A stretch of DNA of 64,000 nucleotides from an uncultured Flavobacteriales bacterium (GCA_903873905.1 CAIQQJ010000145.1:10439-74438); one strand, 5' to 3'; shown: positions 1-14,309, counted from the stretch's first letter. A program made the numbers and translations. The notes: generated from the letters alone by a model not told the origin.

Positions 1-1344
1 GCACAAAAAACCTATGATAATTTTTCAAGTCATATTCAAAAGAAGGAATTTTATTCTCTTTACAGTGATTGTGCATTCAATGATTTGAATACGCTTCGTA
101 ATTTCAAAAGTATTCCTGAAGAGAAAAAATTTGATTTGATTGACATTTATGTTTCGGCAGTCATGAATAATGTTCAGGAAGAATTGAATAGCTTATTGGA
201 TGGAAAGTTGACTGAGAAGGCTGCCGACTCCTATCAAATTCAATCTGTTTTAGATCTTGTATCGCTTCCCAAAGAAGAAATGCAAACCATTAAGGGAAAT
301 TATTATTTTTTCAAAGGGTGGGAATATTGTTATTATTCTTCACCTGAACTTTTGAATACCGGTCTCCTCTATTGTGATTCGGCCATTCAAATTATGCCCA
401 ATGCGGCTTACATCTATGACATACAAGGTTTAATTTATCAAGCACAAAAAAAATACGATGAAGCGCAAGTTTCTTTCAAAAAAGCCATACAGCTAGCGCC
501 CAATTGGACTTTTGCCTTGGGAAATCTTGGACACAATTATTCCAATTTGGGAGATGACTCAACAGCCTTGATTTTATATGATCGTGTTTTGAAATTGGAT
601 TCTACACTTTGGCCTGCTTATAATAATATTGGAGCAATTTATTTTCATAAATGGAGAATTTCTCAAGATGAAAACTATAAAAAGTTGGGAATAGAAAATT
701 ATGAAAAAGCAATCTTCTATGATTCCACGAGTTATGATGCGTATTATAACTTGTCGCTTTTTTATGAAAAGGATTCCATTCAAGACAAATACGTTTCCCT
801 ACTGCTAAAAGCTTTTCATGCGGATTCCACCAGAGCGCAAGTGCTTCAACCTTTGGCTGAATATTATTATGATAAAGAAAAATATTCCGAAGCCGCTTAT
901 TATTTTGGACAATGGTACTATGTCTCTTCGGATCCTATACACGAATACAATTGGGGCGTATCAGCATTGCTTGCAAAGGAGTATGATTACGCGATCAGAA
1001 TTTTTCTAAACTATTGTGACATCAACGTCCATGATTCAGATGGATTTTACATGTTAGGGAAATGTTATTACCAGAATTCAAATTACGATACGGCGCTTTA
1101 CTACTTTAAAACAGAAGAAAAAATAAATCCCAATCGTGTCAATTTGATTTACTACACAGGCATGACCTACAAATTATTGGGCAATAACCAAAAAGCCATT
1201 CCCTATTTTCGTAGGGAAATAAAAACCCATCCTAACAATGCATCTGCATGTTACTATGAACTTTCTCTAATCTATTCGGAAAAATTTCTTGGCAAGCGAA
1301 AATCGAAAAGGTATTGGGCAGAGTATGAAAAGTTGAAAGGGTAA
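1..1344 (+). CDS. TPR-repeat protein, 5'-truncated by the window edge; paralog of the C-terminal part of the caspase-TPR protein at 5112..8096
   Basis: Frame is open from base 1 (AQKTYDNF...), so the TTG start at 85 is probably not the true start. Multiple TPR motifs. Colinear similarity to 5112..8096 (YCDSAIQIMPNAAYIY vs YCDSSIKYQPNAAYIY; LAPNW in both). Confidence 0.85.
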   Translation, partial: AQKTYDNFSSHIQKKEFYSLYSDCAFNDLNTLRNFKSIPEEKKFDLIDIYVSAVMNNVQEELNSLLDGKLTEKAADSYQIQSVLDLVSLPKEEMQTIKGNYYFFKGWEYCYYSSPELLNTGLLYCDSAIQIMPNAAYIYDIQGLIYQAQKKYDEAQVSFKKAIQLAPNWTFALGNLGHNYSNLGDDSTALILYDRVLKLDSTLWPAYNNIGAIYFHKWRISQDENYKKLGIENYEKAIFYDSTSYDAYYNLSLFYEKDSIQDKYVSLLLKAFHADSTRAQVLQPLAEYYYDKEKYSEAAYYFGQWYYVSSDPIHEYNWGVSALLAKEYDYAIRIFLNYCDINVHDSDGFYMLGKCYYQNSNYDTALYYFKTEEKINPNRVNLIYYTGMTYKLLGNNQKAIPYFRREIKTHPNNASACYYELSLIYSEKFLGKRKSKRYWAEYEKLKG

Positions 1345-1499: not shown

Positions 1500-4400
1500 A
1501 TGATTTCTCCAAAACAATTTTTGCTTTGTGCAATTCTTTTCATTTGGAATTGTACATTTCTATTTTCACAACAGTCCGCAACCAATTCTTCGAAACCGGA
1601 GTTGGTATTACCATTAGGACACATTGATCCCATTGTATCTTGCGAATTTAGTCCTGATGGGAAAACCGTTCTTACTGGTGCGGAGGATCACACTGCAAAA
1701 ATCTGGGATGTTGTAAGTGGACGGATATTGAAATCCTTTAATGGACATACCACAACAGTTACACACGCAAGATTCAGTCCTGATGGAAAAACCATACTCA
1801 CATCCTCTTATGATAATACCGTAAAAACCTGGGATGTTCAATCTGGAAAATTGCTTTTGAATTTAATTGGCGCTGAAAAATTCAATGATGCACTTTTCAG
1901 CCCAGATGGAAAGAGATTTATCACATCCTCTGAGGATGCCAACTTGAAAATTTGGGATAGCAAGAGTGGTTTACTAATAATTGAATTGGAAGAAACCGAA
2001 GATTGGGGAACACAACCAAAATTCAGCCCCGATGGAAAAATAGTTTTGGCTCTTTCCCATGATCTTGTAAATCTTTGGGATTCACAAACCGGAAAATTAA
2101 TTCGTACACTGAAAGGACACTTCAGTACCATTTATGACGCAGAGTTTAGTCCCGATGGCAAAAGAATCGTTACCACTTCTGATGATAATAAAGCCAAAAC
2201 ATGGGATGTTGAATCCGGTAAAGTACTTCTTACTTTGGAGAAGCATCAGGAAACAGTTTATACAGGGAAATTCAGTCCCGATGGAAAAAAAATCATTACT
2301 GCATCGAGAGATGAATCAGTAATAGTTTGGGATGCATTGAATGGAAAAACCTTGATGCAAATAAATCCACTTTCCGGAAACTGGATCACAGCAGATTTCA
2401 GCCCTGATGGAAATACGATTATCACAAAAGCTTCTCTATTTGAAATAAAAACATGGGATGCAGTCACAGGAAGATTGCGACACACCTTCTCATTAAGCAA
2501 TGAAGGCCTCGCCGCTTTTAGTCCTGATGGAAAAAAATTGGTGACCGCGGCTAGCGATCATACAGGATCCATTTGGAATGTGGCAGAAGGAAAAATAGTT
2601 ACAAAACTTAAAGGGCATACATTCAGTATTTGGGACTGTGTCCTAAGTAAGGATGGTCACAAAATGATTACCACTTATTGGGGAAAGGCGGCACAAGTTT
2701 GGGATCTTACCAATGGAAAATTCGTGTCCAACATTGGAACGGATACCAATATTTTTTATGGAATGATATTCACGCTAGATGGCAAAAGTATCATTACCAC
2801 TTCAGATGATAACGATGTTTGTCTTTGGGATGTCGCAACAGGAAAACTGATCAGGAAATTTTCAGGACACACCAATCGTACCAGAGGAATAAAATTAAAT
2901 TCGAGTGGAACTATAATCCTTTCTTTTGCAACGGATAACACTGCAAGAACATGGGATCTCAAAACTGGAAAATCATTGCACATATTTGAAGGACATGAGG
3001 AATCAATCGAATACGCAGAATTCAGTCGTGATGACAAAAGCATATTAACGATGTCACAGGACAACACAGTAAAAATATGGGATGTGGAAAGCGGAAAATT
3101 AATTCATACGCTGAAAGAACATAATCGTTTTTGTTTTGCAGCACGCTTTTCACCAGATGGAAAACACATCGTTACAAGTGCTGAAGACAGTCTTGCGTCC
3201 GTTTGGGATGTTCAAAGTGGCAAAAAACTTTTTTCGCTTTATGAGCCGAATTTTGGTTGGATCAGTGCTATAGAATTTAATGCTGTAGGCGACGAAGTGG
3301 TGCTCAATTCACTTGATACGGTTGCAACAGTTTGGGATTTATCCAATGGCAAACTTTTACAAAGACTTCCTGGCATCTCTGATTTTGCTGAACTTTTTCC
3401 AAATGAAAAAAACAGGTTGACGTTTGCAAAAGACAATGCAATCATGATTGGCGACTTGCAAACATCGACAGTAAAACACACCATTAACTTTTCCGGACTT
3501 TTTAAATTCATCGATTGGCAAAATCACCGTTTGGCAACTACCGATAATTCCCTTCTTACGTTTTATGATACTGAATCAGGTCTTGAACTGTATAGCATGG
3601 CGGCAGTTGATGCAAAAGAATATGTATGGGTTCTTCCCTCTGGAGAATACATGACCACTCCTGATGCTGCAAAACATCTTGCCTGGGAAAATAATTTTCA
3701 ACTTTACGATTTCGATCAATGGGATTTGCAATACAATCGTCCCGATAAGGTTTTAATTGCATTGGGAAATACGGATACCCTCTTGACAAAATCTTACTAT
3801 GAAGCCTATTATAAACGCCTGCGAAAAATGGGCATTGATAGTACAATGTTCAATGGAGATTTCCATGTACCTGAAACGGAAATAACAAATGCAGAAGAAA
3901 TCCATGACAATACCAATCAATCATCAGTCAATCTAACCATAAGGGTTTCGGATTCAAATCCTCAAAATTTCATCAGGAAAATAATGGTTACGGTAAATGG
4001 CAATCCCATTTATGGAATGAAGGGAATGAATGTTGAAGCCACGAAACAAAATCAAATTTCATTGACAATTCCAATAACATTATCCAATGGAGTCAACAGC
4101 ATTAAAGTTTCGTGTTTAAATAATCATGCTGCTGCTTCCATCAAGCAAACGGCATACATCAATTATCAGCCGAAAGAAAAAATTGTTTCCAAAACCTATT
4201 ACATCGGCATTGGCGTTTCAGATTATCAGAATCCGAATTACAAATTGAATTACGCCGCCAAAGACGTGAACGATTTATCCAAGGGAATAAAAAAGAAATA
4301 TCCCGATGCTGAAATCCATTTGCTGACCAACAAGGATGCCACTCGTGAAAATATCAAGGCACTCAAGAAAGATATTTTGAGCAAGACCAATGTGGATGAT

Positions 4401-5012
4401 ATTGTCATTGTGTCTTTCAGTGGTCACGGTGTTGCCGACAAGAAAAATAATTTTTATTTCGGAACCTACGATATCAGTTTTGATGATCCTGCGAAAAGGG
4501 GTTTATCCTACGATGACATCGAATGGCTGCTCGATAGTATTCCTGCAAGAAAGAAATTGGTCATGATGGATGCGTGTCACAGTGGTGAATTGGATAAAGA
4601 GGATTTTTACGAAATAAAAAAAGACAGCTCCAATCTTTCGAATAACAATGTTGTCGCTTCAAGAGGTGTTTATATGGTTGCATCAGATCATCCGAAACTT
4701 GGAATGAAAAACAGTTTTACATTAATGCAGGATCTTTTTGCCAATGTGAGTGCCGGAAATGGCGCGACAATAATTTCCGCAGCAGCAGGAACCGAATTTG
4801 CCTTTGAGGGAAATGATTGGAAGAATGGCGTGTTCACCTATTGCGTTTTGCAAGGTTTGATAAATAGAAAAGCCGATGCGAATGCTGATTCAGAAATTAC
4901 CGTGAATGAATTGAAATCTTTTGTTGGTGAAGAAGTGCAAAAACTCACCAATGGAAAACAAAAGCCAACAGCACGCCAAGAGAATTTGGAATATGATTGG
5001 AGGATTTGGTGA
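1500..5012 (+). CDS. Secreted WD40-repeat beta-propeller protein with C-terminal caspase-family (peptidase C14) domain
   Basis: N-terminal signal peptide; about 14 GH...FSPDG...WD repeats; C14 dyad motifs FSGHG and MDACHSG; C-terminal NGVFTY...GKQKP...RQEN. Confidence 0.93.
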   Translation: MISPKQFLLCAILFIWNCTFLFSQQSATNSSKPELVLPLGHIDPIVSCEFSPDGKTVLTGAEDHTAKIWDVVSGRILKSFNGHTTTVTHARFSPDGKTILTSSYDNTVKTWDVQSGKLLLNLIGAEKFNDALFSPDGKRFITSSEDANLKIWDSKSGLLIIELEETEDWGTQPKFSPDGKIVLALSHDLVNLWDSQTGKLIRTLKGHFSTIYDAEFSPDGKRIVTTSDDNKAKTWDVESGKVLLTLEKHQETVYTGKFSPDGKKIITASRDESVIVWDALNGKTLMQINPLSGNWITADFSPDGNTIITKASLFEIKTWDAVTGRLRHTFSLSNEGLAAFSPDGKKLVTAASDHTGSIWNVAEGKIVTKLKGHTFSIWDCVLSKDGHKMITTYWGKAAQVWDLTNGKFVSNIGTDTNIFYGMIFTLDGKSIITTSDDNDVCLWDVATGKLIRKFSGHTNRTRGIKLNSSGTIILSFATDNTARTWDLKTGKSLHIFEGHEESIEYAEFSRDDKSILTMSQDNTVKIWDVESGKLIHTLKEHNRFCFAARFSPDGKHIVTSAEDSLASVWDVQSGKKLFSLYEPNFGWISAIEFNAVGDEVVLNSLDTVATVWDLSNGKLLQRLPGISDFAELFPNEKNRLTFAKDNAIMIGDLQTSTVKHTINFSGLFKFIDWQNHRLATTDNSLLTFYDTESGLELYSMAAVDAKEYVWVLPSGEYMTTPDAAKHLAWENNFQLYDFDQWDLQYNRPDKVLIALGNTDTLLTKSYYEAYYKRLRKMGIDSTMFNGDFHVPETEITNAEEIHDNTNQSSVNLTIRVSDSNPQNFIRKIMVTVNGNPIYGMKGMNVEATKQNQISLTIPITLSNGVNSIKVSCLNNHAAASIKQTAYINYQPKEKIVSKTYYIGIGVSDYQNPNYKLNYAAKDVNDLSKGIKKKYPDAEIHLLTNKDATRENIKALKKDILSKTNVDDIVIVSFSGHGVADKKNNFYFGTYDISFDDPAKRGLSYDDIEWLLDSIPARKKLVMMDACHSGELDKEDFYEIKKDSSNLSNNNVVASRGVYMVASDHPKLGMKNSFTLMQDLFANVSAGNGATIISAAAGTEFAFEGNDWKNGVFTYCVLQGLINRKADANADSEITVNELKSFVGEEVQKLTNGKQKPTARQENLEYDWRIW

Positions 5013-5111
5013 AAAATCAGACTGCAACTTTGCTTCCTAGGAAAGATGCGATGGTGAAGTATTGTTACTGTTAAAATATTAATAAATTACAATTCCCGAT
5101 ACAAATATCTA

Positions 5112-8096
5112 TTATTTCTTCCCAGTATTTTTCGCCACTTGCAACTCATCATATTTTCTCAAATATTTTTTTGCTTTCCCTTTCTTAAACGCTTTTTTCT
5201 GGTACAACTGCGACAAACACAAATAGGCTGTTGCAAAATCAGGTTTTTGTAAGGTGCAGTTTTCAAAATACTTTATTGCCCTATTATCGTCTCCTCGCAA
5301 TTGGTAAGCGCGGCCGAGTAAAAAACTTTTCTGGAAATCCTTTTCAGGACTTGGCATTGCTGGTCCAACAATCGCGATAACTGAATCATTGAATCCAGAT
5401 TGCAGAAATAGATTTCCTAATAATAATCTTCCATCCGCACTATTTGGGTGAGCAGCCACTTGTTCTTTTGCAACTTTGGTAGCACCTGGGATGTCACCGG
5501 ATTCCAATAAAGTATTGGCAATATAAATGCGGTAATCGGATTGTGGGATTTGCTTACCAGCTTTTTCATACCAGGAAATTGCTTCATTGTATTTTTTGTT
5601 ATAAGAACAAATCTGTCCAGCAAAATATTTCAATGAATTGTAATGCTCAATTTGTTCACGATAATAATTAATTAGTTGATAAGCAGAATCAAGGTTTTTA
5701 CCAATGATTTGGCAATCCATTTTCCTTCTAACCACTTCCTCTCCACGCGGCATGATGGAATCTCCTTTAGCAAGAAAAGTTGCATAAAGAGGATCTGATG
5801 GATTTATTTTCGCATAAAATCTGATAAGGCACAAAATATTAATCTGGTTATACGGAGCAATACGATAAGCCTTGGAATAATTTGCACGTGCTGAATAACC
5901 ATCTTCCTTTCTCAGAAAAATATCACCCTTCAATCGATAGAGATAATCTTTTGTAGAATCAACAGCGATAAGTCTATTGATGAATTTTATCGAAGCATCA
6001 TCTGCATTGTATTTTTGCCAATAATCCGTGAGGCAATACAAAGCATTTACATTCCAGTTATTTATTTTGAAAGCCTTCTTGTAATATTCATAAGCAATGG
6101 AATCATTTCCTCCGCGTTCAATCATTTGTCCAATGGCAGTATAAATTTCAGCTGAATCACCACCCAATGCAAGGCTCTTTGAAAAATAATTATTCGCAAG
6201 TGTAACATCTGAATTGCTGTAATAATCTCCAAGCATTTTAATGGTGTTCCAATTGGAGGAATCCTTACTATAAGCAAGATTCAGATAATGCAACACGCTG
6301 TCTGTTTTGTAATAAGAGTAATAATAGGATGCAAGTGAACGATAAGGGCTACTAAATTGTGGAGCAATAGCGATGCTCTTTTTCATACAAGCAATAGCAC
6401 GTGTATCATTATCTCCTCCGAAATTATTGTACATGCGATGATAGGTAGTACCCATCATATCATAAGCGGATGTAAAAGTAGAATCAACCGCCAATGCTTT
6501 TTTGCACCATGAAATTGCCGCATTGCAATTATTAAAATATTTCACTTCAATGGCAGCCATACCAACCATTGGGAAAACCCAATTGGGTGCAAGTGATAAA
6601 GCCTTGTTTACATCAGCAAGTGCTAGATCATACTCACCGAGACTTCCATGAAGCATTCCCCTGGTATTATAAATGTAAGCGGCATTGGGTTGATATTTTA
6701 TGGAAGAGTCACAATAGGTAATCCCCAATTCAAATTGTTCATTATGCAAACCAAATGTTTGTTCCCGTGCCATGAAGAAATAATACTTCCCCATGAAATT
6801 ATTTCTCTCGTTGCCTTCCAATACAACCATTCCTATAAGCGATTTCATTGCACCTGAAGCATTGAAGATGGATTGAGAAGAAAGTATAGTCCGATCACCA
6901 CCGAGATAATCATTCACCAAATCCTGGCAATAATTCATCACCTCATCGATATACAAATCTTTCAAATCTGATTTTCGTTCTTCGCTTACATTGGAAGAAG
7001 AGAGCAATTTGTTGAGTTGTGTAAATGCAGATTCAGATTTTCCAGCAATGTAATTTTGTTTATTCAACTCCGCTTGAAAACGCAGATAATCCTGTTGTGT
7101 GGTATAATCATCAAAATGAATCAAACCTGCACGCGTAATATTATCCGCCTTGGAATATGATTTTGGTTTGGTGTTGGGATGAATGGATTGTAGAGCCTTC
7201 GCTTTCATTTTGGCATCAACATGATCAGCTACGCGGTCAATTTTTGTTTCCTCACAAAAAAATGTAGGCGTTTGTTTGACAGTACCCGATGAGGATTTGG
7301 AATCAGCTCGAACACTATCGATAACATAGTTTTTCAATTCATACCACGAAACATTTCCATCATTATCCTTATCCGCCAATCCTGACATTCCGTTGACGAG
7401 ATGATAAGAAAACAAACCTCGTCCACCACCCCACGCTGCTCCTTCCATGGAAGTTTGATTGGCAGAACAGCTTGCAAACTGAATTTCACCAGCGTTCTCT
7501 TCCATAATTTTCGCATTCGTATAACGTATACCATTTACTTTTCCAGGTAAATCATTGGTACGACATGCATCCGTAATCAAAACCACCTCAGCACTTTTTG
7601 ACGTCATGTATTTGACTCTGTTTTTCAAATTAAAAACCTGAATTGTTCCTCCCGTGATATATAAATTATCATCACCGCCTGGAGGAGCATCATAGGCTAA
7701 CAGAAATGCTTCTTGTTCATCATAGGAATCGCCGTGACAGGCGAAATAAATATAAATGCGTGTATGAGGACTTGCACGTTTCGAGAGCCAAGACAAAGCA
7801 GTAGTTATACTTTGTGCTTTTGCATTTTCATTCAACAACAATTTAATATTTAGAGAATCTACATTTCCTCCTGCAGGTGAACGAAGAAAATTATAAAAGG
7901 CCTGAGCATCCGCATCTGCATACTGTAGCGATTGAACATTCTGGTATTTTGAAATCCCAACAACCAAAGCGTAGGTTGTATCATATTGACCTTGCTCTTG
8001 TTGTTGCACAGGAATTGGCCCACGCGCCTGCTGTGCTGAAATATCAAAAGTGATATGCATTAACAACAGCAAAACAAGAGTTCTTCTGATTTTCAT
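5112..8096 (-). CDS. Secreted caspase-family (C14) protease with long C-terminal TPR array
   Basis: Signal peptide; YALVVGISKY...LQYADADA; FACHG and TDACR dyad motifs; GLFSYHL...GLAD; many TPRs. Confidence 0.92.
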   Translation of the reverse strand: MKIRRTLVLLLLMHITFDISAQQARGPIPVQQQEQGQYDTTYALVVGISKYQNVQSLQYADADAQAFYNFLRSPAGGNVDSLNIKLLLNENAKAQSITTALSWLSKRASPHTRIYIYFACHGDSYDEQEAFLLAYDAPPGGDDNLYITGGTIQVFNLKNRVKYMTSKSAEVVLITDACRTNDLPGKVNGIRYTNAKIMEENAGEIQFASCSANQTSMEGAAWGGGRGLFSYHLVNGMSGLADKDNDGNVSWYELKNYVIDSVRADSKSSSGTVKQTPTFFCEETKIDRVADHVDAKMKAKALQSIHPNTKPKSYSKADNITRAGLIHFDDYTTQQDYLRFQAELNKQNYIAGKSESAFTQLNKLLSSSNVSEERKSDLKDLYIDEVMNYCQDLVNDYLGGDRTILSSQSIFNASGAMKSLIGMVVLEGNERNNFMGKYYFFMAREQTFGLHNEQFELGITYCDSSIKYQPNAAYIYNTRGMLHGSLGEYDLALADVNKALSLAPNWVFPMVGMAAIEVKYFNNCNAAISWCKKALAVDSTFTSAYDMMGTTYHRMYNNFGGDNDTRAIACMKKSIAIAPQFSSPYRSLASYYYSYYKTDSVLHYLNLAYSKDSSNWNTIKMLGDYYSNSDVTLANNYFSKSLALGGDSAEIYTAIGQMIERGGNDSIAYEYYKKAFKINNWNVNALYCLTDYWQKYNADDASIKFINRLIAVDSTKDYLYRLKGDIFLRKEDGYSARANYSKAYRIAPYNQINILCLIRFYAKINPSDPLYATFLAKGDSIMPRGEEVVRRKMDCQIIGKNLDSAYQLINYYREQIEHYNSLKYFAGQICSYNKKYNEAISWYEKAGKQIPQSDYRIYIANTLLESGDIPGATKVAKEQVAAHPNSADGRLLLGNLFLQSGFNDSVIAIVGPAMPSPEKDFQKSFLLGRAYQLRGDDNRAIKYFENCTLQKPDFATAYLCLSQLYQKKAFKKGKAKKYLRKYDELQVAKNTGKK

Positions 8097-8125
8097 TTAT
8101 TTCTTATAAAATATTTGAAACTAAA

Positions 8126-10405
8126 TTATTTCCCTTTAGGAAGACTCTGGAAAGTAAATTTCTGAATTGACCAATGCGTAACGACAGGAGGTTTCGGTTT
8201 TGGCGCTCTGGTTTGTGCACCATTATCCATAAGTAAATCATCAAGTGGTCCTTTTGTCCCTCTTATGCCACGCGTCATAACGCCTTTACTTTCAAATACA
8301 CTAGTCGAAACTGCTACGTCAGAAGTCAACAGGAAATAAGTGTCATTCCCAAAAGGAGGACCAATTGTAAAATTTACTGAATCATTCACAGGTAATACAT
8401 TCATCAGCATTGGAGAACTTCCAGGAATATATTTTATCAAGTTACTTTCAGCGCCATATTCTCCAGAAGGATAAAACAATGTCATTTGTCCCGTTGCATC
8501 AATGGTGAAAATATAACAATAACGTGGGATGATTCTGCTTGAAGGTGCATTTGCCGAATCAAGTTTCAATGCGAAGTGATATTCTTGCTCTTCGATCATT
8601 TTCTCTCCTGGCTGAACAATTTGTTTTTTTCCATTCACCAAAACGAGAGAGTAAGGATAATTATCAGCTGGTGATTTCAAGTTTAGCCAAGAACTAATTT
8701 TTCCCAAACGAACCGCAAATACAGAAAGGCTATCAGCAGTTGTGTCAATTCCATAGCTGCACCAATTTGTTCGTACTGGAAATGAATTGCGAAAGGAAGA
8801 ATCCTGATCGGAAATATTTGGACGAATCAGTGAATAGGCCAATGAACCTTTTTCAGATCTTCCAACAAGAATATAATTTGCCAGCAATGGATTTTTTGTG
8901 AACTCAACTGCGGAATTAGGAGAACCAGGTCCAAGCTTTTTATTGAGTGCTAAAGTTAATTCAGTTGAAGGAGGAAGTTGTAGAAAAACTTCACTGCCTA
9001 TAGGTATAACAGCTTTGATGTTCGCAACTGTCAATGCGGAAAGAATATGCGATTCGTTATGCCCGGCCGATGTCACCAACCATTTTCCTTCATTGAATTG
9101 AATAACATTTGCAGGTGCCTTCTTTGTTGGATCACTTACTAATTTATAATTACTTCCTAAAAATGACATTACAGGAGCTATTTCTTTCTTGAGTTGAGCT
9201 GCTGTCATTGTTGTTTCAGGTGCCCAAATTCTCAAAGTTGGACCAGCAGGATTTACCCAGCTAACCATTTCAACTAAGTCTCCATTTTTTAGGTTGGAAA
9301 TATTTCCTTTACCAACAACAATTGCACTTGATTCCCCAATGCGTTCCACTTTAGTTACTTCAAGTGCAATCGTATCCTTTCCTGTCACTTTAATAAAACG
9401 ACATCCTTCATAAATTGATAGTTCATGTCCTCCTCTTAAAGTCACCTGAGTCGCTGTTACATTCATCACGGCAATAAAAGTTTTTGCAGAATTTTCAGTG
9501 ACTTTATCATTAAAAATTCCGGCTTTTTTTCGTTCATCAGTTCCTCCCATAATCGGATCTTGAAAAGTAGGTCCCTGATCTGATTTTATTATTCCAAGAA
9601 TGGAAGTGTAAAGTCTTTCTGCACTTTGATTGGCGGAAGAAGAATTAATTGCTTTTATCAAAGCAAGAGTAAATGCACCATGTGCAGTTCCATCAAGGTC
9701 TGCTGCTTCCTTTGCGGTTTGATTACGTTGCGCGGCTGAAAATAGCAATGCACCTCGTTTTTCAGGTACAATTTGTTCTTTCGAATCGTCGTTAGCATCC
9801 CAATCAACTGGAGGTGCTTTTCTTTCTTTAAAAGTCACGGGCAAACTATTTCCTCTTGCAATTGCACCGCTATGACAACTGTCAAAAATCAGTGTAAGTG
9901 TAACACCCTTATCTAAAAGTTGATTGAATAATTTTGAAAGTTCCTTGTTGCGAATATCCCACAAATCAGCAGGAACAATAGTTTGATCCCAACCTGTTCC
10001 ATCATAAGACTTGCTGTTTTTTACTTGTGAGCCATGTCCTGCATAATAAAAAAACACAACATCGCCAGGTTGAGAGGTATTGATCAATTTTTGAATTCCA
10101 TCAAGAATACCTTGACGTGAAGCCTTTTGATTGAACAATGTGTCAATGTTATTTTCCATAAATCCATAACGCGCCATAATGATGGAACGCATAGATTTTG
10201 CATCGTTTAAACATCCGTTCAGATTTTCCCAACCAGAACGCTCATTGGCCTTCCCCCTATTTGCAAATACTTCTGGAGTAGTAGCTGTGGGCACGTAAAT
10301 ATCAATACCAATCAATAAGGCACGTTTGGTAATTGCAGACATTGTAAAAGAAGAAAAACACAATGTCAAAATAAAAAAAGCACGGGATAGGGGAAATGTT
10401 TTCAT
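8126..10405 (-). CDS. Secreted metacaspase/orthocaspase-like C14 protease with C-terminal DUF4384-like domain
   Basis: Signal peptide; KRALLIGID...LNGCLNDA; YAGHGS and FDSCHSG; HGAFT; C-terminal YIFTIDATGQMTLFYP...PPFGND pattern typical of DUF4384. Confidence 0.9.
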   Translation of the reverse strand: MKTFPLSRAFFILTLCFSSFTMSAITKRALLIGIDIYVPTATTPEVFANRGKANERSGWENLNGCLNDAKSMRSIIMARYGFMENNIDTLFNQKASRQGILDGIQKLINTSQPGDVVFFYYAGHGSQVKNSKSYDGTGWDQTIVPADLWDIRNKELSKLFNQLLDKGVTLTLIFDSCHSGAIARGNSLPVTFKERKAPPVDWDANDDSKEQIVPEKRGALLFSAAQRNQTAKEAADLDGTAHGAFTLALIKAINSSSANQSAERLYTSILGIIKSDQGPTFQDPIMGGTDERKKAGIFNDKVTENSAKTFIAVMNVTATQVTLRGGHELSIYEGCRFIKVTGKDTIALEVTKVERIGESSAIVVGKGNISNLKNGDLVEMVSWVNPAGPTLRIWAPETTMTAAQLKKEIAPVMSFLGSNYKLVSDPTKKAPANVIQFNEGKWLVTSAGHNESHILSALTVANIKAVIPIGSEVFLQLPPSTELTLALNKKLGPGSPNSAVEFTKNPLLANYILVGRSEKGSLAYSLIRPNISDQDSSFRNSFPVRTNWCSYGIDTTADSLSVFAVRLGKISSWLNLKSPADNYPYSLVLVNGKKQIVQPGEKMIEEQEYHFALKLDSANAPSSRIIPRYCYIFTIDATGQMTLFYPSGEYGAESNLIKYIPGSSPMLMNVLPVNDSVNFTIGPPFGNDTYFLLTSDVAVSTSVFESKGVMTRGIRGTKGPLDDLLMDNGAQTRAPKPKPPVVTHWSIQKFTFQSLPKGK

Positions 10406-10449
10406 AGAGTAATAAAGATAATCAAAGAAATTAGAAAAAAATTGAAGAC

Positions 10450-10481
10450 AAAAAAAAGAGCACTCCTAAAAAGAAGTGCTC
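10450..10481 (-). terminator. Intrinsic terminator between the small secreted protein and the caspase genes
   Basis: Minus strand GAGCACTTC-6 nt-GGAGTGCTC followed by a T run. Confidence 0.75.
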
Positions 10482-10500
10482 CTCAACAATATCAATTCAA

Positions 10501-10908
10501 TTATTTCAAGTTGATATGGTAGTCGCCACTGCAATCACCATTATCGGACCAAGAATAAGTTCCTCCGGCAGTCACGCAATAATAAGTTGTGTATCCACCA
10601 TACACTGTTACATCTCCAACACCGTAAGGAGCAACATCACCTTTGTAGTTTCCATCAACATAAACGTTGATCCAGTAACCAGTGTAATTGTCAAATGTAA
10701 TTGTGCAAAAATCAGTAGAACCACGTTGAGCTGGAGCTGGAGCAGCTACATCGGTAGTTGGTTTGTCAACTTTAATAGCAGCACCACGAGCTTTAGCATC
10801 AACTTTTGTCTGCTTTGGATCTTGAACGATCAATGGTTTTTTTACTTGAGCTGAAACGTACGATACAGACATTACTGTAAGGCAAATCATCAATAGATAC
10901 TTTTTCAT
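10501..10908 (-). CDS. Small secreted protein: low-complexity N-terminal segment with two RG motifs, then a small beta-rich Cys-containing domain
   Basis: Signal peptide (VSA/QV); KARGAA and AQRGST; CTITFDNYTGYWINVYVDG; has its own promoter and terminator. Confidence 0.85.
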   Translation of the reverse strand: MKKYLLMICLTVMSVSYVSAQVKKPLIVQDPKQTKVDAKARGAAIKVDKPTTDVAAPAPAQRGSTDFCTITFDNYTGYWINVYVDGNYKGDVAPYGVGDVTVYGGYTTYYCVTAGGTYSWSDNGDCSGDYHINLK

Positions 10909-10947
10909 AGGATAATTGGGTTTTGGTTTGGGTTAATTCGTGTAATG

Positions 10948-10955
10948 CAAATATA
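10948..10955 (-). promoter_or_regulatory. Bacteroidota sigma70 -7 box (TATATTTG) for the small protein/caspase operon
   Basis: Matches TAnnTTTG about 40 bp upstream of the ATG at 10908. Confidence 0.65.
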
Positions 10956-11230
10956 TTTAAAATTGTGAAGTACAAAATAAAACAAGTGATGTAAAGTCTT
11001 TTTTTACGTTTTTAATGAAAAAATTACGCTCTGAGGAAACTGCAAACAAAACTCTACCACTCTATATTTCAAATCTTTACGTTACAATTAATTTTTCAAG
11101 TGGTACTTGTTATGCTATGTTATTTTAAATGTACCAACACTCAAAACAATAAATTCTCCATTATTCGGATCTGACGAAAAGTAATGAGATAGATTTCTAT
11201 ATTTATGGCCAAACCCCAAAAAACAATTTC

Positions 11231-12136
11231 TTGCAAAAGCCCCACATCAGATTTTTTCTACATTCTATTCTTTCAAAGAGAAATTATTTTTTTCTATTTT
11301 TTTTTCTGTATAATTTCTCTTTAGAACTTTCTGCCCAACATAAAATTGATTTTCAGGTAAAATCTTGGACAGAGATTTTGAATCTTGCCAGAAAAGAGAA
11401 CAAGCCCATTTTTGTAGATGCGTTTACGAACTGGTGTGGTCCTTGTAAAAAAATGGCAGAAGATGTTTTTTCTGATTCAAGCGTGGTGCCATTTTTCAAT
11501 AAATCATTTGTCAATTACAGTGTCAATATTGAAACTCAGGAAGGAAAATTATTTGACTCCATCTTCAAAGTTTCGGCCTACCCCTCACTCTTATTTTTTG
11601 AAGCTAACGGAGAATTGATTTTCAGAGAAATTGGTTATAGGAATGTGTCAAAGTTTCTCGCACTTGGAGTGAGCGCAAAAAACAATCGAGCTTTCATGGA
11701 CTTTACAAAAAAAATGAGAACTGCCTACGAAAATGGATCTGCCAACAAACATTTACTCTATAAATACTTCCTGATTTTACGTGATAGTGGAAGGTCTGTT
11801 GATTCCGTTGCCGCTAGCATCATAAGCAAACTTGTACCTGAAGATCTTAAAAATGACACGGCATTCAACATCTGGTCTGATTATGATCAAAGGATGGATT
11901 CTCCTTTACTCGATTATTTCCTAGAACAAAAACAATGGTTCATTACGAATCGTTCACAAAATGACTTCGATCACAAATTGAATATGATTGTTGCAGAAAA
12001 CTTGTCCTCTTCGAAAAGCTCAAATGATTTAGCTCGCTATGAGAATTTGAAAACTTTCATTCGCCGCGTTTATGATGGCGATGAGGAACAACTTGTTCTG
12101 AATGGTGTGGATCGAAAGTTTAATAGCGAAAAATAA
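11231..12136 (+). CDS. Exported thioredoxin-family protein
   Basis: FVDAFTNWCGPCKKM motif; AYPSLLF cis-Pro motif; hydrophobic N-terminus ending LSA/Q. Start uncertain. Confidence 0.85.
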   Translation: MQKPHIRFFLHSILSKRNYFFLFFFLYNFSLELSAQHKIDFQVKSWTEILNLARKENKPIFVDAFTNWCGPCKKMAEDVFSDSSVVPFFNKSFVNYSVNIETQEGKLFDSIFKVSAYPSLLFFEANGELIFREIGYRNVSKFLALGVSAKNNRAFMDFTKKMRTAYENGSANKHLLYKYFLILRDSGRSVDSVAASIISKLVPEDLKNDTAFNIWSDYDQRMDSPLLDYFLEQKQWFITNRSQNDFDHKLNMIVAENLSSSKSSNDLARYENLKTFIRRVYDGDEEQLVLNGVDRKFNSEK

Positions 12137-12166
12137 TCCCTTCGTTTTACAAATTTCTATTTCACT

Positions 12167-13384
12167 ATGAAACCCCTTCTGTACCGAGACGCTTTTTTCG
12201 CCACCATTTTCGTAATAGCGCTCTATTTGCTTTTGAAACTTGTAATTCTGAATATCCATTTCCTAGAACCTGGACATGAAGAGAAAAAAGATTTTGAAAT
12301 GACTGATCTGGTTTATTCCAAATTCAGTAGTGAAAACAAAAATGGAGTTTCAGTTACAGATCGAGATACCAATATTGTAATGGTAAATATTGGAAATCTA
12401 ACCAGAAAAGAAATTGCAGAGTTATTGGATTCCATTAATTCACATAACCCAAAAGTCATTGCATTAGATGTATTATTCAGTGCAAATAAGCAGGATGATG
12501 ATACATCACTTGCAACAGTTCTTAAAAAAATATCGAACAAATTGGTAATGGTGGGAATGTTGGCATACGATGAACAGGAAAATGCATCAGGAATCGAATC
12601 TTCTCAATCACAATTTAATGTTGGGGCAAAAATTGGGTATACCAATTTCGTTACCAATTCAATGCTCAGTGTTGTCCGATATTTTGCACCATTTACAAAA
12701 GTTGGAAATGAAGAAGTGCCTGCATTTCCCGTTGCCATTGCAGAAAAATATAATCCAGCACTAATTGAAAAGCTGAAACGTCGTGGAAATGAAAAGGAAA
12801 TTATTAATTATCAGTACACGCAGAAAAACATTTATGCTTACGATCACAAGGACATCACGGATCAAAATAGCGGAGCGCTTTCAAATCTGATGGGGAAAAT
12901 TGTCTTGGTTGGCTATTTGGGTTCAGATCTGGATCATGTGGTTACCGAGGATTATCACTACACACCAATGAACGAGGGCAAAAATAAAAAAACTGATCCC
13001 GACATGAGTGGACTAGCCATTCATGCAAATATCATCAGTATGATTCTTCATGGAAAATACATTAGCCATGTTCCAAAATGGTTGATGTGGACGATTTCAA
13101 TTATCCTTTGTTTTTTACACATGATTTTTTTTATTCAATATTTTGTAAAAAAACATTTGTGGTTTCATTTGTATTTCAAAACCATTCAATTCGTCAGTTC
13201 TGCAATCATTATCGGTATTGCAGTTGGACTTTATGGCAAATGGGATTTGCGAATGGAAACCGAAATTTTGCTCGCCCCTATTCTACTATCGGTAGATGCG
13301 CTCTATTTCTTTGAACCACTTATGTTATGGCTTAATAAAAAGCGTGGAATAAAAACTTACTTAATCATGTTACATGACCACTAA
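12167..13384 (+). CDS. CHASE2-domain membrane protein with no cytoplasmic output domain
   Basis: N-terminal TM; IVMVNI...R.EIA.L...PKVIALDVLF; GKIVLVG...D.HYTP...MSGLAIHANII; three C-terminal TMs, then stop. Confidence 0.88.
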   Translation: MKPLLYRDAFFATIFVIALYLLLKLVILNIHFLEPGHEEKKDFEMTDLVYSKFSSENKNGVSVTDRDTNIVMVNIGNLTRKEIAELLDSINSHNPKVIALDVLFSANKQDDDTSLATVLKKISNKLVMVGMLAYDEQENASGIESSQSQFNVGAKIGYTNFVTNSMLSVVRYFAPFTKVGNEEVPAFPVAIAEKYNPALIEKLKRRGNEKEIINYQYTQKNIYAYDHKDITDQNSGALSNLMGKIVLVGYLGSDLDHVVTEDYHYTPMNEGKNKKTDPDMSGLAIHANIISMILHGKYISHVPKWLMWTISIILCFLHMIFFIQYFVKKHLWFHLYFKTIQFVSSAIIIGIAVGLYGKWDLRMETEILLAPILLSVDALYFFEPLMLWLNKKRGIKTYLIMLHDH

Positions 13385-14309
13385 AAAATATTTTCTTTCC
13401 GCGGTCTTTAGTTTTGTTTTGTTTGTTTCTGCAATTAATGCATTTGGACAAACGACAAGCATGCGTGTATTTTATTTCCGTGGGACTGTACAATACAAGA
13501 ATCCTGGATCAAACTACAATGCAATTAATCAAGTCAATATTATTCTCAAAGAAAATCAAACCGTTAAAGTTGGTACGAATTCTCAATTAGTTTTGATTCA
13601 TCCAAACGGGAAACAAATTACGCTTAGTAAACCAGTTGAAATTTTGGTAAGTGAATTAATCATAATGGGAAATGTATCCAATGGCCAATCACTGATTGAT
13701 TCTTACATTAATTTTCTCTGGAAGGAAACAACTGCAGGTCATCAGGAAATGGACCCGGGCAAAAAAGAATCAACTACACAAAAGGGAATGGTGGTGAGAG
13801 GGAATTGTGACGGTGTCCATTTGGATTTTCCTTATGACGGAAGTGAAGTGACCGATAGTATTCTCACTTTTAATTGGACACCGTACGTTGGAACTGCTTT
13901 TTCCTTCCGTGTTTACGATGCACAAGGCGGTCCTGATTGGCCAGCAATGTACTCACAGAAAGTTTCCACCCAATCCTTGACCATAAATTTGGATACTGGA
14001 ATTTTTGCAAAATATGATTCCTTGTATTGGGATGTCTATCAGGAAGGAATGTCGGAAAGTGAATGTCCGCATTATTTATATGTAAAAAGAGACGTTGCCT
14101 TTAATGACAACTTGAAAAAGGATTTTGCAAATTTGGATTTAAGTGCATACGATGCCCCAATGAAGGAATTGTTGTTGGGCGCATTTTACGAGAAGCATCG
14201 CATGTATTCCGAAGCGCGTGAGCATTATCAAGCCGCGGTCAAACTTGCTCCCGACAATGTCAACTTTTCAGAAACGCTGAAGAAGTTTGAGGAGCGTGTT
14301 GGGAAATAA
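13374..14309 (+). CDS. Secreted protein: FecR-like N-terminal beta domain, VVRG linker, DUF928/Ig-like region, C-terminal TPR
   Basis: Signal peptide; RGTVQY...QTVKVGTNSQLVL; GMVVRGNC...FP...TFNW; C-terminal EAREHYQAAVKLAPDN. Overlaps the CHASE2 stop codon. Confidence 0.7.
   Translation: MTTKKYFLSAVFSFVLFVSAINAFGQTTSMRVFYFRGTVQYKNPGSNYNAINQVNIILKENQTVKVGTNSQLVLIHPNGKQITLSKPVEILVSELIIMGNVSNGQSLIDSYINFLWKETTAGHQEMDPGKKESTTQKGMVVRGNCDGVHLDFPYDGSEVTDSILTFNWTPYVGTAFSFRVYDAQGGPDWPAMYSQKVSTQSLTINLDTGIFAKYDSLYWDVYQEGMSESECPHYLYVKRDVAFNDNLKKDFANLDLSAYDAPMKELLLGAFYEKHRMYSEAREHYQAAVKLAPDNVNFSETLKKFEERVGK

Follow-up and report, generated by a model that had tools for sequence, protein, structure and literature searches.

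Conserved [K/R]-Gly pairs as candidate processing sites in exported C14 proteases and a linked secreted protein family of a Flavobacteriales bacterium

According to the accessible sections of a 2017 review, the characterized C14 proteases other than the animal caspases cut strictly after arginine or lysine, and caspase homologs are widespread in bacteria, with one of them biochemically characterized (PMC5756287). Activation of C14 enzymes by a cut after a basic residue downstream of the catalytic cysteine is already established. The available parts of the reports on MaOC1, an enzyme of Microcystis aeruginosa PCC 7806, describe its autoprocessing at Arg219 (PMC7475262) and its degradation in vitro of the product of a neighboring gene, the one in-vitro substrate named in the papers cited here (PMC7935541). 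As far as the accessible portions of the literature go, fusions of caspase domains to WD40, tetratricopeptide repeat (TPR), CHASE2 and DUF4384 modules have also been catalogued (PMC3501461, PMC7475262). Here we consider a window of 64,000 nucleotides from an uncultured Flavobacteriales bacterium (GCA_903873905.1, CAIQQJ010000145.1:10439-74438; positions are counted from its first letter), in which three genes for exported proteins with C14 caspase domains (A, B and C) lie beside a gene for a small secreted protein (D). In the families of all four a basic residue followed by glycine is conserved; it is fairly probable, judging from the sequences, that Arg/Lys-specific C14 proteases process the proteins at these pairs, with D as the candidate pro-protein substrate of the neighboring caspase.

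An earlier reading of this DNA, here called the original prediction, had pointed to Arg-Gly or Arg-Ala strings in linkers of A, B, C, D and a further protein, G, and had proposed that a bond of the type small or aliphatic residue-Arg|Gly serves as both activation site and substrate site. All the quoted strings are found where they had been placed, its premise of orthocaspase activation after Arg agrees with the MaOC1 reports as cited above, and conservation of the sites in homologs whose flanking positions vary is borne out for the A, B, C and D families. The motif itself had to be recast: the basic-Gly pair is conserved, but it is really [K/R]-G, with Lys dominant in the A and B families and Arg in C and D. 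Likewise, the rule of a small or aliphatic P2 fits C and D (S/T/A) and fails in the A family, where Y/F are common, and the position behind the catalytic Cys holds for A and C but not for the B family. The proteins had further been called otherwise unrelated, which does not apply to A, B and C, paralogs that all carry C14 caspase domains. With these changes a common cleavage code, as read from the alignments, is plausible.

Basic-Gly pairs in the three caspase families

Gene A (1500..5012, plus strand) specifies an exported protein of 1170 residues with matches to WD40 families and a signal-peptide-like leader ending in FSQ. In a whole-genome scan its caspase domain scores 60.9 bits against PF00656 (C145:14647-15426 on the contig, window 4209-4988), for which the curated cut-off is 21.4 bits. 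A search gave 2479 relatives at E<=1e-10; 119 of the best 120, at identities of 41-55%, were aligned with A over the last 500 residues. In these best 120 of 2479, the catalytic Cys1026 (in MDACHSGE, 4575..4577, plus) and the Asp at position -2 are each present in 120/120, and the approximately 35 columns that follow the Cys are near random, at 0.5-1.5 bits. Out of this background rises the pair R1055-G1056 of the string VVASRGV (4662..4667, plus), 29 residues after the catalytic Cys. The R1055 column, still within the best 120 of 2479, holds 79 Lys and 31 Arg in 118 sequences (110/118 basic; 3.1 bits, with flanks at 0.5-1.4 bits), and the next one Gly in 108/119 (3.7 bits). In a scan for conserved columns amid unconserved surroundings G1056 ranks 2 of 501. 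Lys accounts for 75/100 of the A-family sites, P2 is often Y/F, and, as in the B family, hydrophobic residues occupy P2' and P4' behind the basic-Gly. From its position and conservation, R1055-G1056 is a candidate autoprocessing site.

Gene C (8126..10405, minus strand, as are all positions of C below) codes for an exported protein of 759 residues composed of a C14 caspase domain (88.2 bits against PF00656 in Pfam), a middle region and a DUF4384-like C-terminus; the DUF4384 match (PF14326, residues 627-695) reaches 25.2 bits (E 1.8e-5), under the cut-off of 27. Full-length orthologs occur in 6 of the 60 other genomes searched, all of the same genus and at 49-65% identity, and one further homolog, at 36% identity, comes from another family (locus L060). 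The seven-row alignment, from which one of the six genus orthologs (that of the unpublished genome G012) is left out, gives the same picture. His124 (10034-10036), the catalytic Cys177 (in DSCHSG, 9875..9877) and the Asp two residues before it are invariant in 7/7. Two pairs follow the Cys. R184-G185 of AIARGN (9851..9856), 7 residues after Cys177, is invariant in 7/7 including the 36%-identical homolog, and a 709-residue caspase at another locus (L061) has T-R-G. R217-G218 (9752..9757), 40 residues after the Cys, ends the post-Cys linker (186-216), which is variable and of low predicted local distance difference test (pLDDT) score, and stands directly before the strand ALLFSAAQ; its Arg is present in 7/7 and the following Gly in 6/7, and from these features we consider it the best candidate activation site of C.

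Outside this loop, R50-G51 of FANRGK (10253..10258), in an insert after the first strand, is RG in the query and in 6/6 genus orthologs, in one of them shifted by an indel, with G-R-S in the L060 homolog. In the C-terminal loop the string VMTRGIRG (8258..8272) contains R712-G713, with Arg in 7/7 followed by G/D/A/E, and R715-G716, also part of the quoted string, which is present in just 1/7. R733-A734 of AQTRAP (8204..8209), a T-R-small site, keeps Arg in 7/7 with A, G or S as the next residue in 7/7. The pair R324-G325, absent from the original prediction, falls in a conserved folded domain and is uninformative either way. The segments after the linker (ALLFSAAQRNQTAKE...HGAFT) seem to resemble metacaspase p10 motifs, and "C14 metacaspase/orthocaspase-type" is the safer label. 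In the strict sense, as the accessible sections of the 2017 review put it, an orthocaspase is prokaryotic and without a p10 domain (PMC5756287).

Gene B (5112..8096, minus strand) codes for an exported caspase-TPR protein of 994 residues with matches to TPR families. B itself has no PF00656 match at E<=10 in the Pfam scan. Its N-terminal 340 residues are 51% identical to a 782-residue caspase-TPR paralog, B', which scores 62.7 bits against PF00656, and PF00656 is precomputed in most of the 120 listed relatives of B. Thus A, C and B' all score above the PF00656 cut-off. The gene for B' begins 1005 bases upstream of the window (G000:C145:9434-11782), with its 3' part at 1..1344 on the plus strand; since B' straddles the window start, the caspase cluster exceeds the span of the original prediction. 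The B family comprises 190 relatives at E<=1e-10; 119 of them, from a set of 120, were aligned with B over its first 480 residues. In these 120 of 190, the catalytic Cys178 (in TDACRT, 7563..7565, minus) is present in 120/120 and the Asp two residues before it is also invariant; B has the His motif ACHGD. This Asp, in the A, B and C families alike, may line the acidic S1 pocket that would give Arg/Lys specificity, as in the structure of TbMCA2. Because it and the catalytic Cys are invariant in all three families, the enzymes look active.

In the B family, where the loop after Cys178 shows no conserved basic residue among the 120 aligned sequences, two sites flank the protease domain instead. 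The signal-cleavage Gln is conserved in 111/113, and the [K/R]-G of the N-terminal site starts four residues into the mature N-terminus (after A|Q); in B this is R25-G26 of QQARGP (8019..8024, minus). Its columns hold 52 Lys and 22 Arg in 79 occupied cells, then Gly in 77/79, and an alignment-free count finds [KR]G within 12 residues of [AGS]Q in 76/114, in 46 of them exactly at Q+3. The second site, represented in B by R322-A323-G324 of NITRAG (7125..7133, minus), lies between the caspase domain and the TPR region, with 61 Lys and 27 Arg of 96, then 74 Gly, 10 Ser and 3 Ala of 88; B itself, with R-A-G, is one residue out of register here. Among 473 columns scanned for islands of conservation, those of the N-terminal site rank 4 and those of the post-domain site 5 and 7. 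B' has K-G at the place of R25-G26 and K-K-G at that of R322-A-G. Lys makes up 52/74 of the N-terminal and 50/68 of the post-domain sites. Across the families, only K and R interchange at the first motif position, an alternation that fits the strict basic P1 preference of metacaspases and orthocaspases.

The D family and its linkage to caspase C

Gene D (10501..10908, minus strand) codes for a secreted protein of 135 residues laid out as a signal peptide, an N-terminal region with two R-G sites and a C-terminal beta-sandwich with a conserved Cys pair (C68/C126). An exhaustive profile-free search among 1.84 billion sequences gave 192 cluster representatives at E<=1e-3, of which 150 were listed; 142 members of 100-175 residues were aligned with D, eight being left out for length. 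Site 1, R41-G42 of AKARGA (10783..10788, minus), corresponds to columns with 105 Arg and 16 Lys in 133 sequences (121/133 basic), preceded by S/T/A and followed by Gly in 113/130. Site 2, R62-G63 of AQRGS (10720..10725, minus), 5 residues before the first conserved Cys, has 98 Arg and 16 Lys in 140 (114/140 basic), again followed by Gly; this Gly is found in 69/121 in one column, a low count because the alignment smears there. Independently of columns, a [KR]G lies at most 6 residues from each of the two sites in 104/143. The two sites share the word K-[S/T]-R-G: among these 104, P3 is Lys in 54 at each site, P2 is S/T in 66 and 67, and P1 is Arg in 91 and 89. The Arg and Gly columns of the sites are as informative as core positions of the C-terminal domain, and within the genus each of the sites is present in 9/10 copies.

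The segment between the sites, G42-R62 in D (21 residues; 10723..10785, minus), measures 13-38 residues in the 78 members that have both sites by the strict [KR]G test, 19-37 in 76/78 with a mode of 21, and has a conserved core of [N/D]-P-N-I-x-K and P-T-x-D. The distance from site 2 to the first Cys is 3-6 residues in 67/78. As both sites bound the segment and site 2 is close to the first Cys, double cutting would free a defined peptide together with a trimmed domain. The P-T-x-D word was also considered as a Bacteroidota O-glycosylation sequon and set aside, since its residue order does not fit that sequon.

Residues 61-135 of D are modeled by AlphaFold2 (AF2) as a seven-stranded beta-sandwich (mean pLDDT 90). 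D matches 0 Pfam families, and at E<=1 no family recurs in over 4 of the 50 members scanned; the weak matches seen at that level (Inhibitor_I36 in 2/50, DUF6520 in 4/50) are scattered and were dismissed as noise. A Foldseek search with the model gave nothing at E<=0.001, the weak rows being pVHL beta-domain-like with template-modeling (TM) scores of 0.35-0.42. VIA-align returned transthyretin-like and carboxypeptidase-regulatory-like rows with a best Z of 7.4, in a range common for unrelated beta-sandwiches. We draw no function for D from these generic beta-sandwich matches. The ESM Atlas adds Bacteroidota clusters without names and one automatic name, "beta/gamma crystallin". A complex prediction of C (24-759) with D (21-135) scored 0.00, a value obtained without controls that speaks neither for nor against binding.

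The linkage of D to C is strict in the genomes covered. D adjoins C in all 7 genomes with full-length C, and among 61 related genomes the D-family profile matches these 7 and no others, G012 included. When 401 genomes sampled evenly across the phylum were searched with the D profile, only 3, including the source genome, contained D. The two further genomes belong to different families, and in both D stands beside a C-like caspase (747 residues at 35% and 709 residues at 24% identity) within clusters that contain TPR- and WD40-type caspases. C-D adjacency thus holds at all nine caspase-cluster loci examined. At the two further loci the motif recurs in equivalent positions: the L060 caspase has HSGSLSRG and two T/A-R-G sites in its C-terminal loop, the 709-residue caspase of L061 has 8 RG vs 1.7 expected, and the D homologs at these two loci carry N-R-G, P-R-G and S-R-G.

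Copies of D occur in tandem beside the C ortholog in two genomes, three of them in G007 (L034, G007:C50:1422-3038) and two in G015 (L036, G015:C3), and one copy per array is without one of the two R-G sites. Two dispersed paralogs (L062, G006:C15:4158-4571; L063, G007:C127:7999-8406) share a non-caspase gene context, keep site 1 and have lost site 2, with extra Cys residues instead. They occur in genomes that also hold a C-D pair.

Cleavage and the rival explanations

The Arg-Gly dipeptide is also enriched by count. A, B, C, D and G together contain 19 RG vs 7.1 expected from the Arg and Gly content of each protein, in a genome where RG is under-represented (observed/expected 0.81 over 2900 open reading frames (ORFs), or 0.85 with the expectation summed per protein; the ORFs are crude calls of at least 120 residues, with ATG start and overlaps removed). 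The Poisson p calibrated on the genome is 2e-5. Among 400 dipeptides RG is the second most enriched in the five proteins; WD, the first, and GK and GH, the next after RG, derive from the WD40 repeats of A. For B, C and D taken together RG ranks first of 400 (14 vs 4.0 expected, p 8e-5), and the run of genes A-G is the most RG-enriched of 2006 sliding seven-ORF windows of the genome (21 vs 6.8, p 9e-6). The original prediction had proposed a comparison with other exported proteins as a check, and an enrichment is seen: 5.64 RG per 1000 residues in the five proteins vs 1.68 in 437 exported-like ones, as chosen by a crude signal-peptide and Q-rule heuristic. The latter are RG-poor overall (observed/expected 0.79). 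Elsewhere in the genome, the most RG-rich proteins share a repeat start "..N-x-RG....LG" and look like TPR repeat proteins by eye; examples are G000:C138:1860-3494 (plus), with 9 RG vs 0.8 expected, and G000:C176:22292-23560 (plus), with 5 vs 0.5, both exported and TPR-like by eye. Any scan of dipeptides has to allow for the TPR repeat consensus as a trivial source of RG, and because of this contribution the enrichment of the neighborhood ranks here below the homolog alignments, which are the stronger evidence. With the TPR region of B removed there are 15 RG vs 4.8 expected (p 1.5e-4). The compositional signal is real but moderate.

In the mechanism that we favor, the [K/R]-Gly pairs would be the scissile P1-P1' bonds in limited proteolysis by the C14 proteases of the cluster. 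What suggests scissile bonds is the K/R-only alternation taken together with the post-Cys loop position in A and C, the domain borders in B and the repeated word in D. Cuts at R1055|G in A, and at R184|G and above all R217|G in C, would divide the caspase fold into its large and small parts behind the catalytic Cys, the classical way of activating a zymogen. In the B family, a cut at the first site would shorten the N-terminus, and one at the second would free the protease from the TPR part. D would be the dedicated pro-protein substrate of C, losing its N-terminal region, or having a segment of about 21 residues excised, from the disulfide-bonded beta-sandwich. D is assigned to C because its Arg-preferring sites match the Arg-only sites of C, the A- and B-family sites being 70-75% Lys; MaOC1, with its neighbor-encoded substrate, is a precedent. 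The sequences themselves show the motif, its enrichment and conservation, the gene linkage and intact catalytic residues; the cutting, the acting enzyme and the effect we infer from them.

A number of observations weigh against cleavage, and several of them are what one would expect if the [K/R]-Gly were conserved for a non-proteolytic reason, as an uncut pseudo-substrate or latch in the acidic S1 pocket that holds the enzyme or its partner bound, or as a turn or strand start that the protein needs in order to fold or to dock onto the WD40, TPR or DUF4384 modules. Caspase-type proteases generally read mainly the non-prime side, whereas here conservation of the prime side equals that of P1 (Gly in 108/119 in A, 77/79 in B and 113/130 in D), so the motif may serve docking or folding besides or instead of cutting. 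The hydrophobic P2' and P4' residues of the A and B families suggest a strand. The sites had been placed in flexible segments, and this part of the original prediction divides. In the AF2 model of C, built from 7 sequences and weak (mean pLDDT 59), residues 39-63, 176-248 and 705-743 fall below a pLDDT of 50 and include 6 of the 7 examined RG/RA sites, a hint that the site-bearing segments of C are poorly ordered. The N-terminal region of D, on the other side, is modeled as ordered against its domain (pLDDT 85-92), with R41-G42 in a short helix and no exposed loop. R184, at just 7 residues from the catalytic Cys of C, is close for a scissile loop. In the B family the N-terminal site is gapped in 41/120, and a trim of four residues at the N-terminus has no obvious purpose. 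In D, only 78/143 members have both sites by the strict [KR]G test. In G, finally, the segment around R142 is conserved as a whole. Yet alternation between K and R alone, at fast-evolving and length-variable positions, is what a basic P1 leads one to expect, and the same word recurs twice in D and repeatedly in the loops of C. A latch and a cleavage site are moreover not mutually exclusive; in Arabidopsis metacaspase 4 a linker Lys reportedly occupies the pocket before being cut. On balance we regard a purely non-proteolytic role as unlikely.

That the sites are cut by some other Arg/Lys protease of the envelope, housekeeping or secreted, with the gene linkage reflecting another functional tie, would agree with the fact that nothing in the analysis names the acting enzyme and that processing at basic residues is generally common in exported pro-proteins. 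The two dispersed paralogs of D, which keep site 1, have no caspase detected by BLAST within 14 and 9.5 kb. As limits on the favored mechanism, the seven genomes in which C and D co-occur are not independent, as all are of one genus, and A, B, E, F and G do not lie beside C-D in the genus relatives, some of whose contigs are short, so that the five proteins do not make up a single conserved operon. What speaks for the caspases themselves is the concentration of the motif in and beside their genes, at the top of the 2006 neighborhoods and against an RG-poor exported-like background (0.79), together with the strict co-occurrence and adjacency of C and D. The preference for Arg or Lys also tracks the caspase subfamily, and the orphan D paralogs are without site 2. 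Another envelope protease seems to us quite improbable. It is hardly credible that composition, repeat consensus and the post-hoc choice of a dipeptide account for the whole pattern. RG was indeed selected after the sequences had been read, 4 of the 6 RG of B fall in its TPR region, at least 2 of them in a "..N-x-RG" context, in a genome whose TPR-like proteins can be as RG-rich as 9 vs 0.8, and protein by protein the p-values reach only 0.01-0.23. The enrichment nevertheless outlasts both the removal of the TPR region and the comparison of all 400 dipeptides, where B, C and D together put RG at rank 1. Chance cannot give column-wise conservation over 120-143 diverged homologs in four families, whose identities of 33-55% are far from near-identical; the alignments largely refute this explanation.

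Limited proteolysis by the C14 enzymes can be extended to a more specific proposal, which by analogy with other systems we offer as a long shot. D might be a secreted pro-peptide precursor in which C would cut both K-[S/T]-R|G words, and the peptide, or the unmasked beta-sandwich, might act as an extracytoplasmic signal for sensors such as the CHASE2 protein F, while the G-hydrophobic-x-hydrophobic neo-N-termini of the caspases might insert and switch the enzymes on in the manner of trypsinogen. The would-be peptide reads G-x-[N/D]-P-N-I-x-K...P-T-x-D...K-S-R, with a new Gly N-terminus. If true, it would be a bacterial counterpart of the plant Pep peptides released by metacaspases. Such an insertion takes up the tethered-ligand role that the original prediction had given to the new Gly N-termini, which is pure speculation.

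Neighboring genes and known systems

Downstream of D, gene E (11231..12136, plus strand) codes for an exported thioredoxin-like protein that has no RG; it is encoded beside a family with a conserved Cys pair, C68/C126 in D, and a role in the formation of the D disulfide is conceivable. Gene F (12167..13384, plus) specifies a membrane protein of 405 residues whose CHASE2 domain (PF05226, residues 76-315) scores 94 bits over a cut-off of 26.3 bits; hydrophobic segments stand at its end, it is without a recognizable output domain, and it has 2 RG, at residues 206 and 393. The stop of F and the start of G overlap by 11 bases, from which the two look co-translated. Gene G (13374..14309, plus) codes for an exported protein of 311 residues with C-terminal TPRs, which give weak Pfam matches only, below the cut-offs. 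The label FecR-like that it had been given is not sustained, as no FecR family appears in Pfam at E<=0.01 or at E<=10. The string GMVVRGNC of G contains R142-G143 (13797..13802, plus). A word-indexed protein search found no relative of G but itself, and three distant homologs occur in two of 60 genomes, too few to judge the RG of G; with these, R142 is Arg in 4/4 and the next residue Gly in 2/4. Distant homologs of G form a tandem pair at locus L055 (G046:C3, ORFs 488-1363 and 1477-2379, minus), downstream of a 440-residue ORF, and the caspases of that genome sit on other contigs. Directly upstream of B' lies a lipoprotein-like ORF of 324 residues (L056, 8197-9171, plus, on G000:C145) whose leader ends in Cys and for which Pfam gave no match. 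In the source genome as a whole, PF00656 is matched at least 8 times, spread over 4 contigs.

A, B, D, E and G have hydrophobic leaders with [S/G/A]-Q at the end, and that of C ends in MSA|I. A leader end of the [S/G/A]-Q type is the Q-rule context of Bacteroidetes signal peptidase, as described in the accessible parts of two reports (PMC5837995, PMC10653852). From such leader sequences, read by eye, A, B, C, D, E and G are judged to be exported. The extracytoplasmic setting that signal peptides and Q-rule N-termini imply argues against a simple role in programmed cell death and points towards signaling or maturation in the envelope or outside the cell.

The literature search, which left supplements, where tables of cleavage sites could be held, outside its scope, found no paper on the basic-Gly motif, on the D family or on exported caspases of Bacteroidota. 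As far as it shows, the near-invariant Gly after the basic residue and the sites that flank the TPR-caspase domain are new, as are the exported setting and, with its pair of matched sites and its strict linkage to one caspase subfamily, the D family. If the cleavage reading is true, it would give concrete scissile bonds for three large caspase families of Bacteroidota, a requirement for Gly at P1' that could guide the design of substrates and probes, and, in a genetically linked Pfam-less secreted family, a natural substrate encoded side by side with its enzyme, so that the two could be co-expressed. If it is false, the motifs would be unexplained conserved short linear motifs in four families.

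Among known systems, the gingipains of Porphyromonas (clan CD, family C25) are likewise cysteine proteases of Bacteroidota specific for Arg or Lys; they are exported, have a caspase-like fold and lose a pro-domain by a cut after Arg. They differ in belonging to C25 and not C14, in their secretion by a type IX C-terminal domain and in their role in virulence and nutrition. Arabidopsis metacaspase 4 reportedly frees Pep1 from PROPEP1 by cutting after Arg. The likeness to the D proposal is that a basic-specific C14 enzyme releases a short signaling peptide from a small precursor, D having two matched sites; the plant system is eukaryotic and cytosolic, with one cut and a C-terminal peptide, whereas the D proposal is extracytoplasmic, with two cuts and an internal segment. 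A near-invariant Gly at P1' is not known from type II metacaspases or animal caspases, and the caspases differ further in cutting after Asp.

The activating cut of type II metacaspases and animal caspases falls, according to the available sections of the review, within the linker that joins the large part of the fold to the small one, which is the position of the A and C sites; type II metacaspases are described there as calcium-dependent and confined to the green lineage (PMC5756287). Both groups differ in this from the B family, which is without such a basic residue in its post-Cys loop. MaOC1, in the accessible parts of its reports, is like the enzymes of this cluster a C14 protease of bacterial origin that has a His-Cys dyad; it prefers Arg or Lys at P1 and cuts itself at Arg219, behind the catalytic Cys (PMC7475262), a site to which those of A and C can be likened. 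The cleavage sites in its substrate are given as undetermined in the available text (PMC7935541), so a P1' rule is unavailable for this comparison. Those same parts describe MaOC1 without an exported, multi-paralog setting, in contrast to the proteins of this cluster with their signal peptides and WD40, TPR or DUF4384-like modules, and the substrate named for MaOC1 is an antitoxin, whereas D, the candidate substrate in this cluster, is a secreted protein with a beta-sandwich.

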